This document shows, piece after piece, positions 7,521-62,593 of a stretch of 64,000 bases of DNA (within the stretch, counting starts at the first letter, position 1; each line of letters starts with the position of its first letter). The position numbers and the translations under genes are program-made. The notes under the pieces are model-generated. The model saw only the letters and a list, made by a program, of their open reading frames with translations. It was not told the origin of the DNA and ran no database searches. This DNA is from Octopus vulgaris (Eukaryota): NCBI GenBank assembly GCA_951406725.2, contig OX597820.1:50220001-50284000 (forward strand). The letters run 5' to 3'.

Positions 7521-8966
7521 AACGCTAATAGCTAAGGAGTAAAATTTAGGATTTCTCGGTTTTCCGAGAATCAATGCTGATAAAACATTTCCCAGCTGGT
7601 TTGCACACTATGGCAACACCACTGTGATATTTCTATTATAATGTGTATCGCCCTTTCTTTTTTTATTTCAGTTTCTTCTAATTTTGGGTGAATCACGCTA
7701 ATAGCGTCTCACTTCCCTAAGAACAAAGGGACATAGAAAAGGCCTTATCGATTAAGAAAAGTCTGTCATTATCAAGGAAAGTGCTAAAGGCATCTCGCTT
7801 CATGTCATTGCGGAGATGTTAGGTCGTCATGTGGACACGGTTAGACGATTCCTGAAGGACCTTTCGCCACAGAAGAAACGATCCAATTGTGGGACCTGCA
7901 AGACTGTGACAGCTAGTGATTTAAGTAATATTGGCCGCAAGTTACGTGGGAAACATGCATAAAGAAGCAAAGCCATTTTTACCGCCTCCGGACTTTCTCG
8001 TGTACCGAAAACCACCAGAAACCGCATCTTCGGGACCATGACTTCCGTGCAAGAACCCCTGGGTCTGCATTCTTTAACGCCTCATCACAGGATTTCGAGG
8101 CTTCAGTGAACTCAAAATTACATGATGTTAGACATGAGTTGTTTCCTGTTTACTGAATAAACCCGGGCGACCCTTGACGGACATGACGGTTGGGCAAATA
8201 GTTGGGTCTCTTTGGAGACGAACATGACCAGCGTTTATGACGTCAACAACAGGATGGAGGAGTTATGTTGTGGGCCGGTATCACTGAAGACATATTTATT
8301 GGCCCGGTCAGGGAGTCTGAAAGGGTTAAAGTGACCGCAGCCGCCTACTGTAATCTCCTGAAGGAGGTCTTGGCTCACTGGTTAGATGACATTTCGCTGT
8401 CACGTTTAAGGAATCTCATAGTCATGCATGTCAACGCTCCCACCCATTCTGTTACGACAACTCAAACACTACTAGGGTCTTACAGCATACAAGGTTGATG
8501 GTGTGGCCGCCAGCATCTCTGGATCTCAACCCTATCGAAAATATTAGGTACATCATTAAACAAGATGTTTATGCCGATGGACGGCAATTTATATCTTACG
8601 GGCGACCATCAAAGCTGCAGCAGAGGCAGTCCAACCTGTTACTATTAAGAAATTGACAGATTCCATGACTAATAGAGTTTTTGAAATTATCTGTCGAAAT
8701 GGCGTTCATGTGACAAAGTATCATTACCCTTCAATTTCTGAAAAAACAAAATGTCTAGATGGGCTATTCAAAAGCTATTACTGTGGTTCACCCAAAAACT
8801 GAAGAATCTGATATAAAAGAAAGAAAGGACCTTACACAGAATAGTGAAGACATAGCAATTGTGTTGCCATTGTGTGCAAACCAGCTGGGAAAAAGTTTTA
8901 TCAAAATTGATTCACAGAAAACCGAGAAATCCTAAATTTCACCCTTAAGCTATTAGCGTGGTTCTG
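7521..8966 (+). mobile_element. Tc1-family DNA transposon (DD37E/TRT-like), near full length, transposase pseudogene at about 7727-8720
   Basis: About 185-bp TIRs (7521-7705 and 8773-8966), each with an outer and inner (C)GCTAATAGC-like repeat. Decayed ORF motifs: IAEMLGRHVDTVRRFL, LFTE*TRATLDGHDGW, GGVMLWAGI, IVMHVNAPTHS, LMVWPPASLDLNPIEN. Confidence 0.9.
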
Positions 8967-9095: not shown

Positions 9096-9228
9096 TGCAA
9101 CGCACAACTGTAGCCACATATAAACTGTTGTTGTTCGTAATGAAACCGAAATGAAATAATCGATGTTACACTCATTTTCTAGATCAAAACTTCGATTTTG
9201 AATGTTAACAATAGTTTATGCCATGAAA

Positions 9229-9298
<70 letters not shown>

Positions 9299-9540
9299 TA
9301 ATTAAGGGTAGAAATTGATATTTATCAATTAAGACCAGTGGTCTAGCATATTAAAAAAGAATCCGAAGATTAAAATATTTATATATACCAATTAAGGACT
9401 GAACACGAAAAGTGGACAGTCAACATGCTAGATATAGACGTCAAATCGTCATTCACCACAAAAGATTATGTTCTCAGATCAAACTCAACACAAAACCATA
9501 GCAATAAACAAGTGAAAAATATACGAAATAAAATAATTAC

Positions 9541-9605
9541 CCATGTACTAACTTAGTTTCAGCTGTTATTTTCCGCAAGGAAAACTGCAGCCATCATCAG
9601 CATGG
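9541..9605 (-). ncRNA. Type I hammerhead ribozyme motif (family A)
   Basis: Minus strand reads CCAUG-CUGAUGA-UGGCUG...CAGCU-GAAA-CUAAGUUAG-UA-CAUGG. Stems I, II and III pair and the cleavage triplet is GUA. Confidence 0.85.
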
Positions 9606-10141
9606 TCCGTTATAAATGTAATTTGCTGGACTAAATGCAAACACGATACCGAAATATCGCGTGCATGGAGTTCAGCCTATTACATTTGAATATATCTTTC
9701 AAATGCCTTTACCTTGGCGCGTTGAAACCCGAAAAAACTAGCCTGCAGCTAATAATTAGCAGCAGTTAATTTATCGGTTAGAGAACATATTTATTTATAT
9801 AAAATTAATTAAGGGTAGAAATTGATATTTATCAATTAAGACCAGTGGTCTAGCATATTAAAAAAGAATCCGAAGATTAAAATATTTATATATACCAATT
9901 AAGGACTGAACACGAAAAGTGGACAGTCAACATGCTAGATATAGACGTCAAATCGTCATTCACCACAAAAGATTATGTTCTCAGATCAAACTCAACACAA
10001 AACCATAGCAATAAACAAGTGAAAAATATACGAAATAAAATAATTAAATAAAATAAATAAAATGTAATAGGCTGAACTCCATGCACGCGATATTTCGGTA
10101 TCGTGTTTGCATTTAGTCCAGCAAATTACATTTATAACGGA

Positions 10142-10207
10142 CCATGCTGATGATGGCTGCAGTTTTCTCTTGCGGAAAATAACAGCTGAAACTAAGTTAG
10201 TACATGG
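10142..10207 (+). ncRNA. Type I hammerhead ribozyme motif (family A, inverted copy)
   Basis: CCATG CTGATGA TGGCTGCAGTTTTCTCTTGCGGAAAATAACAGCT GAAA CTAAGTTAG TA CATGG. Confidence 0.85.
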
Positions 10208-10360
10208 GTAATTATTTTATTTCGTATATTTTTCACTTGTTTATTGCTATGGTTTTGTGTTGAGTTTGATCTGAGAACATAATCTTTTGTGGTGAATGAC
10301 GATTTGACGTCTATATCTAGCATGTTGACTGTCCACTTTTCGTGTTCAGTCCTTAATTGG

Positions 10361-10384
<24 letters not shown>

Positions 10385-10392
<8 letters not shown>

Positions 10393-10890
10393 TTAAAATT
10401 ACTAAGTCTCTCTAAAGGAGATTACGGCAGCGTTACTGGATATTAATAGTTATCGCCATACTAATATGGCAGTCTATAAATAAGACTAAAGCTGTCGCTG
10501 ATTAGCTCCAAGAGGCCATCACCTCTAGCTAGCTATATGACACACGAACCTGCGTCCATTACAACCTTCGAACAGGGGAGGTCAACCGCTTCACCTTGCT
10601 AGTCAGACATCTGCAGACATGTTTCAGGGTTGTTGCCCTTTATCAATGCAGCGTAGTCAGAACCAGCAGGTGTCGCTACTGACCGTCTGTTCGAAGATTT
10701 TATTTACCTAGTTACAGTGGAATACATCCGCTTGTTTTCAATAATAGAAATATTAAAATTACTAAGTCTCTCTAAAGGAGATTACGGCAGCGTTACTGGA
10801 TATTAATAGTTATCGCCATACTAATATGGCAGTCTATAAATAAGACTAAAGCTGTCGCTGATTAGCTCCAAGAGGCCATGACCTCTAGCT
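10385..10890 (-). mobile_element. Retrozyme-like or non-autonomous PLE repeat: 360-bp monomer present in 1.4 copies
   Basis: 10385-10530 is repeated at 10745-10890 with a single substitution. There is no ORF, one hammerhead per monomer, and the left end abuts (TA)n. Confidence 0.75.
10611..10651 (-). ncRNA. Minimal type I hammerhead ribozyme motif, U3:A8 core variant (family B)
   Basis: Minus strand reads CUGCA-UUGAUAA-AGGG-CAACAA-CCCU-GAAA-CAUG-UC-UGCAG: 5-bp stem I, 4-bp stem II, palindromic mini stem III and a GUC site. Confidence 0.85.
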
Positions 10891-10892
10891 AT

Positions 10893-11062
10893 ATAAAACC
10901 AGTAAAACTTTTTTCATTTTCTGTTTTTTTCTTTTTTCTTTCTGTTGAAAAGCGTAGGCTCGCATCGTAAAAGACTTTCTCACTTCCCGAGCGTTAAACT
11001 AATACATCTGTATGTTGTTTACACACTCGTTTTCATCTTCTGTTTTTTTTCTTGTAAATTCC

Positions 11063-11066
<4 letters not shown>
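10893..11066 (+). mobile_element. PLE-like 3' end with decayed hammerhead (10938-10973)
   Basis: CTTT-CTGTTGA-AAAGCGTAGGCTC-GCAT-CGTA-AAAG has the same layout as the motif at 48472. A T-rich tail ends ...AAC|TATA, as at 48608. Confidence 0.55.
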
Positions 11067-11145
<79 letters not shown>

Positions 11146-19252: not shown

Positions 19253-19585
19253 TTATGATCTGGCGCTTCTCATGGGCGATGTGTGGTACAACCTCATCTG
19301 TTTAATGTGTACTACCAGAGTATCACATACAGTGCTGGAGTGCGACAAGAGTACAATGGGCGTGAAGTCTTCTCGGATGTAAATTGCCACTCCTCCATGA
19401 GACCTTTCTCGTATATCGGTCCGTAGCACGACATACCCTGGTATGTGTACCTCGGCGTCCGTTACATCGACATGTAGGTGTGTTTCTGTTAGTGACACGC
19501 ATATTGCTTCATTGCATACCAAAAGGTCTCTTAGAAATTGCTTTTTACGTTGGTGGAGTGTTATAAGGTCCCTAAGTTTTTGTTT
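19253..19585 (-). mobile_element. LINE ORF2 N-terminal AP-endonuclease fragment (CR1 group)
   Basis: VSLTETHL...AEVHIPGYVVLRTDIRERSHGGVAIYIRED. Confidence 0.85.
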
Positions 19586-19666
19586 ATTATCACCCACAGC
19601 AATACGATGTAATACTTGTGTATACATTCATCCGTTCGCACACACACATATACATACAAATACACA

Positions 19667-19717
<51 letters not shown>

Positions 19718-19719
<2 letters not shown>

Positions 19720-20106
19720 TTAAATCCTTAAATCCTTAAAAATGTTTTACCCCGAAGGCCGCGGCCATGCTGGGGCACCACCGCTGAATGAGCTACACTA
19801 GTTTGTGAATCCACCTCTGATACGTGGCACTTGATCAACAAGGGAGTTCGATGCTGCTGCCCGCATCCGTGTCTCCTGTCGTGAGGTAGGTTCATCTGGG
19901 ACTCCCAACAAGAAGAGATCCAGTTTAGTTTTGAAGAAACCCACATCCACACCATGTAAGTCTCTCAGGCATTTAGGGAGGATGTTAAAGAGCTGTGGTC
20001 CTCTGAAACCCAAGCTGTTGCAGTATCTGGACCTGTATTTTGATGGTGATGTTGGAATCCTTGGCACCACGCAGCGGCGCCCCGTTCTGCGGTTGGAGTA
20101 ACTTTG
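19718..20106 (-). mobile_element. CR1-group LINE 3' end
   Basis: GRRCVVPRI...YCNSLGFRGPQLFNILPKCLRDL...FKTKLDLFLLGVPDEP...SNSLVDQ. The 3'UTR GGTGCCCCAGCATGGCCGCGG and a (TTTAAGGA)n tail follow; (TA)n lies on both sides. Confidence 0.85.
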
Positions 20107-20136
20107 AATATATATATTCATATATATATCATATAT

Positions 20137-20208
<72 letters not shown>

Positions 20209-23080: not shown

Positions 23081-23868
23081 ACATACATATATATATATAT
23101 ATATATACATACATACATACATACAAACAAACAAATACGTGAGTGTATTACTATATATCGAACATGTTATCCACCTTGTGCAAATGCAAAACACAAGACA
23201 TATATGCATCCTGGTGCATAGAGTCAACTAGTGTGCATATGAACAGACGCCTTCGTACGACAATGTATATATTTCTTATAAAGAGGTAGATGTAGAGAGT
23301 TGTTTAGTGAGGGATATGCCCAGACTAATAGCATATACCTGTGGAAGAGGATTTTATAAACAGGGTTAATATCGAAAATATATATTAATGCATCGGGATC
23401 CGTGTACATATATAAATAAATTCACTTCCACATTTATAATTACGGGAGCAAGTTAAATAAGGGTGCGTGTGTAGCATTCAAAAGAACTTAGATTGTTTTT
23501 AATTTGTCTATATTCTAGGTGTTAAAGAAAAACGTTTTTTTTTTTTTGGAGGGCGAAGGAAACCGAATTTAAATCTGTATTGAAGACCTTCGCTCTCTCA
23601 AATAACCTGAAAGCATTGGATTATGACGTGTCTTTGAGTTTTACGTTCAACACAGAGTTAGCGTGTCTAGTGTCAGATTATATGTTTATATTTCGAAATG
23701 TGTGTATATGATGGGTAAGACAAAGTTTAATAAAATGAGGTCTCTTGTGTATCTGTCCCAAGAGTGATGAATAACATTATCAGAGAAAACACCCAACACT
23801 GGCCAAAATAATTTTAAGACCGATGATGACAGTTCAATGCCCAGTCTGGGTATCAAACTGTATATATA

Positions 23869-24838
<970 letters not shown>

Positions 24839-24841
24839 ATT

Positions 24842-24908
<67 letters not shown>

Positions 24909-25203
24909 TTTGATACCCAGCCTGGGCATTGCGTTGTGTTTTTCATTTCATGTTGCTCTGCGATCATTTCGACATCTGTCATATGGCTCCCGTTGCACCT
25001 GTACAGGTAATTCCGATCTGATGGAGGAATGAGCTTGTGTCTACACAAACATTTCATCACTGTAAACAAATCATCTGTGTGGATATTCGGTAAGAAACTG
25101 TTAAACCCTCATACGTAGTCTAACGACGAGAGTCATCATCATATATGTGTGTGCGTGAGTGTGTATGTGTGTGTCTGTGTGTGTGTGTTGTGTGTGTGTG
25201 TGA

Positions 25204-27362: not shown

Positions 27363-27416
<54 letters not shown>

Positions 27417-27603
27417 ATCCAAACATGAAAACACAAACAGAAAACACAACAATATATATATATATGCATATGCATATATATATGCACGTGTGTGTATATA
27501 TATGTATGTGTATATATATATGTGTATCTATATGTATGTATGTATGTAATATATATGCACGTGTGTGTATATATATGTATGTGTATATATATGTATGTGT
27601 ATC

Positions 27604-48404: not shown

Positions 48405-48608
48405 GACCGCGTGTGTATCGTTGGCGATTTGTTTCCTCCGTCTTCCCTGCTTGGATCTTTCCTTTTTCTATGTTTCTGACGAAGAGCTCCGCTCGAAACG
48501 TTAGATCCTCCTGCTTTCTTTCCTTTCCTGAGCATTCAATAGCACTATACTTGTTCCACGTCCTAGCGTTGTTGTGTTTTCTGTTTGTGTTTTCATTTTT
48601 GGATTAAC
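48405..48608 (+). mobile_element. PLE-like 3' end (family D) ending in (TA)n
   Basis: It contains a hammerhead. Its last 40 bp recur inverted at 27413-27452, also inside (TA)n. Confidence 0.7.
48472..48506 (+). ncRNA. Minimal type I hammerhead ribozyme motif (family D)
   Basis: GTTT-CTGACGA-AGAGC-TCC-GCTC-GAAA-CG-TT-AGAT. The core is intact; stem I is weak with two G-U pairs. Confidence 0.7.
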
Positions 48609-50599: not shown

Positions 50600-51424
50600 A
50601 GTATGTCTTAATAGAGCAAGAAGAAATAAAGGAAACGGAAGGGTTTATCATAGCAGCCCAAGATCAATGCCTACCTACAAGGAACTACTAGGCCAACATA
50701 TTAAAGAACGGCAGCTTCCCAACATGTCGTGTATGTCAAGAACAAAATGAAACCATTGACCATGTTGTCTCCATGTGCAATCTTCTTGCGCCTACAGAGT
50801 ATCTCAACAAGCATGATAGAGCTGCACAATATATTCACTGGGTAATTTGCAAAAACCTGTACTTTTCCCATGATAAAAATTGGTGGGAATACAAACCACC
50901 TCGAGTGCTTGAAAATGATGACATCTCACTCATCTGGCACTTCACCATTCAAACCGACAGAAAGATAGATGCAAATATGTCAGAGTTACCTGTCAAGACT
51001 TACCAAAGGCTGAGCAAGTATAAAGATCTTGAAATGGAAATCAGCAAAACGTGAAACCTGAAGACTAAAACAATACCTGTTGTCATATGTGCTTCAGGAA
51101 TGACAGGAAAAGGGGCTGATTGTTACCTAGCTCAGATACAGGGAACCCCAAAACGGCAGAAACTCAAAAGATAGTGCTCATGGGAACTACCCATATTCTA
51201 CGTAATATTCTGTCTATGTAATCTTAAATTTTAAAGGAAACACAATTTTCTTTTGGTTTCTTAAACATTTTCTAGAACAACACTATGCACAAAACCAAAT
51301 ATATGACACCCCAGGCATAACACCATCATGAAAACCTAGCTTGTTGCCTCTAGAGGTCTCTGGGTGAGACTTGGAGCTAACTTGTACAAATGCAAATCGA
51401 AAGTCAAACATAAAATAATAATAA
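50600..51424 (+). mobile_element. R4/Dong-clade retrotransposon 3' fragment
   Basis: ETEGFIIAAQDQCLPTRNY, the CCHC knuckle CRVC...ETIDHVVSMC, KHDRAAQYIHWVICK and LSKYKDLEMEISK. The 3'UTR ends in (TAA)n. Confidence 0.9.
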
Positions 51425-54011: not shown

Positions 54012-54261
54012 TAATAAATATTAGGGAATAAATTCAAATTTACAGGGAAAAAAATCAGATTTAGGATTAAATCCAATTTTATAGTAAAATATTATAAAAT
54101 ATTATTAGAGACAAAACCACTATTTTGCAAAACAAACAAGGAAAGACTTAATCAATACATAAAATTTTAATAAATAGTCAATTTATTAAAATTTTATGTA
54201 TTGATTAAGTCTTTCCTTGTTTGTTTTGCAAAATAGTGGTTTTGTCTCTAATAATATTTTA
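54012..54261. repeat. Family C-related PLE terminus forming a perfect 81-bp hairpin
   Basis: Arms 54095-54175 and 54181-54261 are exact reverse complements with loop AGTCA. 54012-54094 matches the tail 24757-24838 inverted. Confidence 0.9.
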
Positions 54262-57709: not shown

Positions 57710-57752
<43 letters not shown>

Positions 57753-57756
<4 letters not shown>

Positions 57757-57925
57757 AATTGAGGACTGAACACGAAAAGTGGACAGTCAACATGCTAGAT
57801 ATAGACGTCAAATCGTCATTCTCCACAAAAGATTATGTTCTCAAATCAAACTCGGATTCTTTTTAATATGCTATACCACTGGTTTTAATTGATAAATATT
57901 GATTTCTACCCTTAATTAATTTTAT
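57753..57925. repeat. Family A mini-insertion with inversion, in (TA)n
   Basis: 57753-57853 matches 9386-9486 directly. 57852-57925 is the reverse complement of 9295-9366. Confidence 0.9.
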
Positions 57926-57937
57926 TATATATATATA

Positions 57938-58002
<65 letters not shown>

Positions 58003-61366: not shown

Positions 61367-61428
61367 TTCCCCTGACGAGGCGAATGGGTCCCTTAAGTGG
61401 TTCCTAACGCCGAAATTGCAATAGGGAA
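61367..61428 (+). ncRNA. Type I hammerhead ribozyme motif (family E)
   Basis: TTCCC-CTGACGA-GGCG...CGCC-GAAA-TTGCAA-TA-GGGAA: perfect stems I and II, palindromic stem III and an AUA site. Confidence 0.9.
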
Positions 61429-61670
61429 TCAACCAATTATTTTCATGTTGTGGATTCTATGTCGCCCGAGGACAATGTTTATAGTGAGGAGAAATATTAA
61501 GAGTATCATGATGGCCTTATAGCGGTTTTGGCTGCTATTTTTCACATGTAAGTGTTTTTTAACCCTCTTATTTATAATTGTGACGTGTCCATAATTATAA
61601 ACCTTTTTATATATAGATAATGTACTGATCCGTGATAGAGAATTCAACAACAACAAATGTAGTCCGTCTG

Positions 61671-62593
<923 letters not shown>

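Follow-up and report, generated by a model that had tools for sequence, protein, structure and literature searches.

Positions 10384 to 10891 of the window (the whole 64,000-nt stretch of Octopus vulgaris DNA analysed here) hold a repeat insertion that is longer than its own repeat unit and carries a predicted hammerhead ribozyme well away from both of its ends. This locus raises the question of what kind of mobile element would leave such an insertion behind and, more specifically, whether the offset between the ends and the cleavage site points to a circular RNA template, as the initial annotation had proposed.

Architecture of the insertion and its predicted hammerhead

The insertion is 508 nt long and amounts to 1.41 units of a 360-bp monomer. 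Its outer parts form a direct repeat of 148 nt with a period of 360 (10384-10531 and 10744-10891), in which 147 of 148 positions are identical, the sole mismatch being C at 10520 and G at 10880. The features to which the text refers are as follows.

10384..10891, minus strand: the whole insertion, 1.41 units of an ORF-less 360-bp monomer, with its 5' end at 10891 and its 3' end at 10384 (the sense strand is minus)
10744..10891, minus strand: 5'-truncated partial upstream unit of 148 nt, ending 84 nt short of the expected next cleavage site
10384..10531, minus strand: second member of the 148-nt repeat, at the 3' terminus and abutting (TA)n; 10384 is equivalent to 10744, the family's preferred 3' end
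10611..10651, minus strand: type I hammerhead motif (from descriptor and fold) with a palindromic helix III of 2 bp; a dimer is predicted to be necessary
10615..10616, minus strand: predicted self-cleavage site, after the C at 10616 (from the motif)
10563..10699, minus strand: predicted long rod with the hammerhead at its tip and a 10-bp inverted pair (10566/10687) at its base (from the fold)
10736..10758, minus strand: predicted 8-bp AU-rich hairpin whose 7-nt loop, 10744-10750, contains the preferred 3' end (from folds)
10361..10386, no strand: (TA)13 microsatellite, the target, on which an inverted neighbour of a 507-bp family also has its 3' end (from sequence)
10890..10895, no strand: 5' junction with three TA units that probably remain from the right side of the target and overlap the element by 2 nt

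The 360-bp unit has a GC content of 0.42; the window is AT-rich (GC 0.26-0.40) and dense in microsatellites. When the unit is read as a circle, its longest stop-free stretch is 34 codons on the minus (sense) strand and 56 codons on the plus strand, and the 56-aa plus-strand frame retrieved no Pfam match. There is no poly(A) tail at the insertion, whose target is an AT-rich microsatellite, no TSD is readable, both junctions being TA, and no inverted 5'-truncated partner is present at this locus. The hammerhead sits inside the unrepeated 212 nt, so that the locus carries one hammerhead in 1.41 units rather than two consecutive hammerhead units, and the direct repeats themselves contain none. The initial annotation had described this insertion as a 1.4-mer of an ORF-less 360-bp monomer with a single hammerhead on an unstated strand, ends that do not coincide with the cleavage site at 10615/10616, and a 10-bp inverted pair around the ribozyme. 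All of this agrees with our analysis, which places the hammerhead on the minus strand, the ends 232 nt and 276 nt from the cut, and the inverted pair at exactly 10566 and 10687.

Read from 10651 to 10611, the motif consists of a 5-bp helix I, the core UUGAUAA, a 4-bp helix II with a 6-nt loop, GAAA and the palindromic helix III. Its core has U3-A8 instead of C3-G8, and helix II contains A10.1-U11.1. The descriptor used to find such motifs was composed after this one had been seen; it gave 0 matches in 3000 shuffles of the unit, and 6 matches in the real window as opposed to 0 in 50 shuffled windows. Rfam assigned no family at gathering score in the window, and at E<=10 over 9200-11100 it returned six chance matches, none of them to a ribozyme or a hammerhead model. 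The rod (10563-10699) folds at -61.4 kcal/mol with a z-score of -6.6, and none of 200 shuffles was equally stable. Counting against a ribozyme, the minimum-energy fold mispairs the catalytic core, the hammerhead-ready fold being only 0.3 kcal/mol higher.

Two copies of the hammerhead co-fold through an intermolecular helix III at -31.2 kcal/mol, versus 2 x -13.1 kcal/mol for separate copies. A U3-A8 core is already documented for hammerheads elsewhere, as is the need for a dimer when helix III is palindromic (PMC4209133), and the hammerhead of the 360-bp unit is predicted to cut well only as a dimer. Because its helix III is palindromic and efficient cutting is predicted only for the dimer, the one-hammerhead copy at 10384-10891 would be unable to release a monomer or a circle by itself. 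We would like to note that, according to the in vitro results given in one preprint, 8 of 9 predicted frog elements failed to cut (bioRxiv 2026.07.22.740005). Compared with the PLE hammerhead variants set out in Cervera & de la Pena 2014 (PMC4209133), the present motif is similar in its U3-A8 covariation (as in Schistosoma Cercyon), its palindromic helix III and its presumed need for a dimer. The minimal PLE motifs described there differ in that their helix II is longer and A9 is followed by one additional base; the octopus motif, which lacks that base and has a helix II of 4 bp, resembles the canonical ones.

The repeat family and its copy ends

The stretch is wholly or partly contained in 20 of the 24 sequencing runs listed, at least half of the sampled words being present in 18 of them; the runs containing it carry 4 organism labels, come from 8 studies and are all represented as contigs. 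Contigs of four runs (X1, X2, X11 and X14) were aligned to 10532-11060 at 85% likeness. X1 may be the source of the window, X2 is filed under a different organism label, and X11 and X14 may be RNA; none of the listed runs is recorded as RNA. Contigs do not reveal circles, strand, expression level or the ends of molecules, and the cover of the unit in X11 and X14 was counted neither for nor against expression. In X1, summed contig depth over the 360-bp unit exceeds that over the unique flank by a factor of about 900 to 24,000, a ratio that is not a copy number; the same flank has little or no cover in X2, X11 and X14, where no empty site was seen. The 360-bp repeat is thus plainly a large, very high-copy family and not a one-off. 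The details below come from 32 of 20,191 pieces, 23 of 664 loose ends, 15 of 27 joints and 40 of 71 variants, which are not a random sample.

Joints that go back from 10891 to 10532 occur in X1, X2 and X11. Contigs cross both unit junctions, and other family copies read through both of the 148-nt repeats; none of the listed pieces is long enough for two hammerheads. Diverged contigs (up to 20 differences) span 10601-10729 and 10731-10786, extending by at least 31 letters to either side, and copies that are 5-15% diverged are continuous from the 3'-end region to the hammerhead (X1 piece 3, X2 piece 31, X14 piece 18 and X11 piece 9). Since diverged copies bridge the whole unit without an ORF, the closed, ORF-less unit is a trait of the family and not just the pLTR of a coding element. 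The initial annotation had named a unit always attached to a PLE ORF as the finding that would speak against its reading, and copies spanning 360 nt without an ORF are the opposite of that.

None of the 40 listed variants falls in the catalytic core or helices I-III, and two fall in loop 2. Between 10560 and 10700, 14 of 18 variants were scored, leaving out four that come from a single X14 contig or have negligible depth; 10 of those scored reach 10% in X1 or X2. Three of the 10 change G-U to G-C, one changes A-U to G-U, one is unpaired, one extends helix I to 6 bp, and two alter loop 2 to CAAAUA, which we take to be the loop of canonical animal hammerheads. The two common variants at 10593 and 10662 disrupt predicted rod pairs, which counts against conservation of the rod.

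The 360-bp unit accounts for 26 of the 32 listed pieces, six of which continue for at least 20 unaligned letters past the 3' (low-coordinate) side. Four of these six stop at 10742-10745, the same end as that of the copy at 10384-10891, in a sample that is small and not random. The other two, which stop at 10715 and 10543, speak against a single end site, as does a loose end in X1 that puts a TA junction near 10818; a loose end in X11 made of TA-repeat letters lies at 10741. A second 3' end may lie about 29 nt beyond the main one, a distance of PLE "tail" size (X14 piece 20 at 10715 and X1 piece 4 at 10716). Judging from the folds and the copy ends, the hairpin at 10736-10758 is a candidate internal start site of reverse transcription.

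Contig depth peaks at 1.48 M at 10748-10765, just upstream of the preferred 3' end, and falls to a minimum of 0.056 M at 10658-10675, some 280-300 nt further upstream. This gradient fits 5' truncation, although it is confounded by the divergence of this copy itself (indels at 10659-10662), and depth climbs again from 10694 to 10747. Joints between opposite strands make up 6 of the 15 listed (of 27 in total), each in one contig. Inverted joints are a PLE signature and partial tandems a standard form of PLE insertion, as set out in an account of these elements (PMC8557442). The family therefore shows several Penelope-type features, namely a partial tandem, 5' truncation, a preferred internal 3' end, a (TA)n target and inverted copies.

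Other hammerhead families in the window

The six hammerhead matches in the window belong to five families, and each is followed, in its own sense, by a (TA)5+ tract 106-251 nt downstream. A random position has a 23% chance of lying within 260 nt upstream of such a tract, a cut-off that was chosen afterwards. The 360-bp unit (unit A), its two neighbours (B and C) and the three other hammerhead regions share nothing beyond 18-nt AT-rich matches, and we therefore treat the hammerhead regions as separate families. The two neighbours are as follows.

9295..10373, both strands: neighbour B, an unrelated 507-bp hammerhead family, made up of a 1.48-mer on the minus strand (9295-10046) and an inverted 5'-truncated copy (10060-10373)
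10942..11065, plus strand: neighbour C, a very high-copy repeat that ends on (TA)n at 11066 and is the deepest in contig depth

Neighbour B has hammerheads at 9600 (minus) and 10147 (plus) and lies tail to tail with the 360-bp insertion across the same (TA)13. With its period of 507, it is ORF-less, has a C3-G8 core and a long helix II, ends on (TA)n at both 3' ends, and gives a circular fold with a z-score of -8.5. Its 1.48-mer has its 5' end at 10046, only 6 nt before the next cleavage site would be reached (10052/10053), which hints at a linear template starting at the cut; this is a single event, expected by chance at about 1-3%, in a different family from the 360-bp unit. Two short family-B pieces lie inverted at 57740-57938, each ending on (TA)n and 91-97% identical to the copy at 9295. 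The start of neighbour C was missed by the descriptor and, by eye, looks like a possible decayed minimal hammerhead on the plus strand.

The remaining hammerheads are found farther along the window. At 24295-24860, two truncated copies stand in inverted orientation, each bordered by (TA)n on its outer side, and the pair contains a hammerhead at 24460 (minus); additional pieces of this repeat occur at 54022-54258, and its flanks contain a 35-nt inverted match (23835-23869 and 24897-24931). The region 48476-48608 contains a minimal hammerhead on the plus strand, 106 nt upstream of (TA)n, and the last 40 nt of the region recur inverted at 27413-27452. A complete type I hammerhead (61372) with a 2-bp helix III is found on the plus strand within 61367-61673, 251 nt upstream of (TA)n, and this region has no second copy within the window.

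Decayed Tc1/Tc3-type transposase (weak HTH and DDE_3 matches) and LINE-like fragments were seen at 7756-8802, 19253-20190, 50692-51054 and 61795-62118. Pfam searches with 35 frames of the window retrieved Tc1-type and LINE-type fragments, and no PLE reverse transcriptase or GIY-YIG domain. A metagenome scan with a hammerhead 16-mer, covering about half of the collection, yielded 119 loci, none of which was similar to unit A, B or C by blastn. Four of them (L002, L004, L005 and L009) and about 30 more of the 119 belong to an unrelated multi-copy repeat that shares the 16-mer of the hammerhead 3' half. Viral contigs gave 0 matches in a search with a 20-mer.

Relation to known elements and probable mode of movement

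Animal hammerhead repeats of similar size, and their link to Penelope-like elements, have been published before (PMC7229834, bioRxiv 10.64898/2026.07.22.740005). Similar to metazoan non-LTR retrozymes as portrayed in Cervera & de la Pena 2020 (PMC7229834), the octopus unit is a non-coding sequence of a few hundred bases with a GC content under 50%, its type I hammerhead has a short palindromic helix III, the unit is continuous head to tail, and it pairs strongly with itself; that account also proposes PLEs as the mobiliser and gives 350-390 bp for mussel units. In size and GC, the 360-bp unit lies within the retrozyme range (~150-450 bp, GC under 50%). It departs from the retrozymes in that account in having one hammerhead at 10384-10891 and not a tandem of at least two, in its U3-A8 core with A10.1-U11.1, and in belonging to a family that looks mostly dispersed, 5'-truncated and tied to (TA)n, as seen here in contigs.

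The ORF-less hammerhead units derived from PLE pLTRs that Li, Clavereau & Pollet report (bioRxiv 10.64898/2026.07.22.740005) are likewise commonly present as dispersed, evenly spread "monomer" copies. Their "active" class needs two consecutive hammerhead units, and by that scheme, as their preprint outlines it, the copy at 10384-10891 is a monomer. They conclude that such retrozyme units are non-autonomous PLE derivatives, and the sections of the preprint compared here contain no map of where copies end with respect to the ribozyme. Among non-autonomous Chlamys PLEs (Craig et al. 2021, PMC8557442), MRC1 and similar elements resemble the present family in having ORF-less, head-to-tail copies and pLTRs. 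The same paper's coverage of Chlamys and of the (TA)n-targeting Naiad/Neptune PLEs includes partial tandems, 5' truncation, inverted 5' copies and microsatellites that hide TSDs, all of which recall the octopus repeat; in contrast, Naiad and most Chlamys elements are there described as being without canonical hammerheads. On these comparisons, we file the 360-bp repeat as a putative non-autonomous Penelope-type element with a predicted type I hammerhead, working like an animal non-LTR retrozyme. The copy at 10384-10891 is not filed as an active retrozyme since it has only one hammerhead.

The closest parallel for the ends comes from Poseidon_Ac (Frangieh et al. 2024, PMC11167929), in which in vitro reverse transcription begins at an internal stem-loop of the RNA, downstream of the hammerhead, and genomic ends match that start. 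In that system, nicking is at AT-rich sites, hammerhead mutants insert normally and uncut RNA is the main substrate (PMC11167929). The 360-bp family is similar in that its insertion 3' ends lie inside the RNA at a predicted stem-loop downstream of the hammerhead, and in its AT-rich targets. It differs in that Poseidon_Ac is autonomous, with an ORF that starts in the hammerhead and a start of reverse transcription in an AC-rich stem-loop 111-118 nt into the ORF (PMC11167929), whereas in the octopus family the preferred end is some 232 nt beyond the cut, in a predicted AU-rich hairpin loop.

Taken together, we consider it probable that the abundant ORF-less 360-bp repeat moves as a non-autonomous Penelope-type retroelement, and that it is copied from a linear RNA longer than one unit rather than from a circle. 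A head-to-tail or longer-than-unit source would be transcribed in the minus-strand sense, and a PLE protein presumably encoded elsewhere would nick (TA)n, the target observed at this insertion. Reverse transcription would then begin in the AU-rich hairpin loop, some 232 nt downstream of where the hammerhead cuts; the preferred end lies there in the copies, the hairpin is predicted, and the start is proposed by analogy with Poseidon_Ac. The enzyme would pass an uncut hammerhead, or jump between self-cleaved monomers, into the next unit and stop at a variable point. At 10384-10891, where the copy reaches 148 nt into the second unit, it may have taken either route. As to the template within this scheme, we give a linear multimer, uncut or partly cut, about an even chance; a circle is clearly less probable, and jumping between linear self-cleaved monomers less probable again.

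The strongest competitor to a linear template is a version of the scheme in the initial annotation: master arrays would give rise to 360-nt monomers that cut themselves free and are closed by ligation, and a PLE reverse transcriptase starting within such a circle would roll past one unit, leaving 1.x-mers. The retrozyme-like, ORF-less and mobile nature of the unit holds up, and copying by a PLE reverse transcriptase is likely; what fails is the use of the offset as evidence for a circle. The 3' end is preferred family-wide, and the offset is common to all six hammerheads of the window. Because PLE reverse transcription starts inside uncut RNA downstream of the hammerhead (PMC11167929), offset ends say nothing about circularity. 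Any RNA mobilised by a PLE is expected to show such an offset, and a linear transcript that is longer than one unit or partly cleaved is sufficient; we therefore reject the argument that offset ends imply a circle.

Some observations nevertheless suit a circle. In size and GC (42%), the unit is like mussel retrozymes of 350-390 bp, for which the account in PMC7229834 reports accumulation as circles, and a route from circle to longer-than-unit cDNA has been put forward in the treatments of PMC4209133 and PMC7229834. The cDNA runs through the cleavage site without a scar, and the geometry of the hammerhead is nearer to the canonical type than to the PLE minimal motifs. The circularised sense strand folds at -114.8 kcal/mol with a z-score of -4.9 against 60 shuffles, but the opposite strand folds almost equally well (z -4.7), so that the stability of the circular fold reflects the rod and not circularity. 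Furthermore, any linear RNA longer than one unit would give an equal 1.4-mer, the only PLE system available in vitro works mainly on uncut RNA (PMC11167929), neighbour B stops beside its cleavage site, and depth along the unit suggests less than unit length for most copies. We thus hold it rather unlikely that master arrays fed circles in the way just described, and similarly doubtful that a 360-nt circRNA was the template, primed by a PLE reverse transcriptase at the fixed hairpin loop and rolled round.

An improbable alternative to a non-autonomous element is that an autonomous PLE left two 5'-truncated pieces (pLTR plus tail) here in partial tandem, with no self-standing 360-bp family behind them. 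Partial tandems are the normal form of PLEs as presented in PMC8557442, the repeat junction coincides with the preferred 3' end, and the hammerhead termini at 24460, 48476 and 61372 in the window are single short pieces ending on (TA)n. This reading is largely refuted by the 5-15% diverged copies that keep the continuity from the 3'-end region to the hammerhead, and sense-strand frames of at most 34 codons also stand against it. The related possibility of an ordinary pLTR of a coding element is rejected, as there is no ORF between the repeats and diverged copies bridge the unit without one.

It is very improbable that one monomer inserted and 148 bp of it were later duplicated locally by slippage or repair, or that a 148-bp TSD surrounds a 212-bp insert: the near-identity of the repeats and the position of the only hammerhead between them would fit, but the 148-bp part is the deepest in the family, other copies cross both junctions, and neighbour B shows a longer-than-unit form at a different period, and both versions are rejected. 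A plant LTR retrozyme is rejected as well, given that the motif is type I and outside the repeats and that the definition in PMC5680766, as excerpted for this comparison, has a type III motif in each LTR and a 4-bp TSD.

A search of the literature on octopus retrozymes or hammerheads and non-autonomous Penelope elements found no paper whose title or opening abstract lines describe the 360-bp family, repeat libraries and subscription papers being outside its scope; the O. vulgaris repeat paper counts Penelope families and, in the portion compared, does not mention ribozymes (PMC13282606). We therefore regard the 360-bp repeat as a new family of a kind already known in animals. What it adds is mechanistic and modest, namely a retrozyme-like unit with the end pattern of Penelope internal initiation, which is unmapped for retrozymes in the literature compared. 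If the template were a circle, thousands of dispersed copies with a fixed 3' end and variable 5' ends would constitute a genomic read-out of it, and such a read-out would settle circles versus linear multimers for the transposition of retrozymes and PLEs, in a host genome with at least five hammerhead families sharing (TA)n targets.
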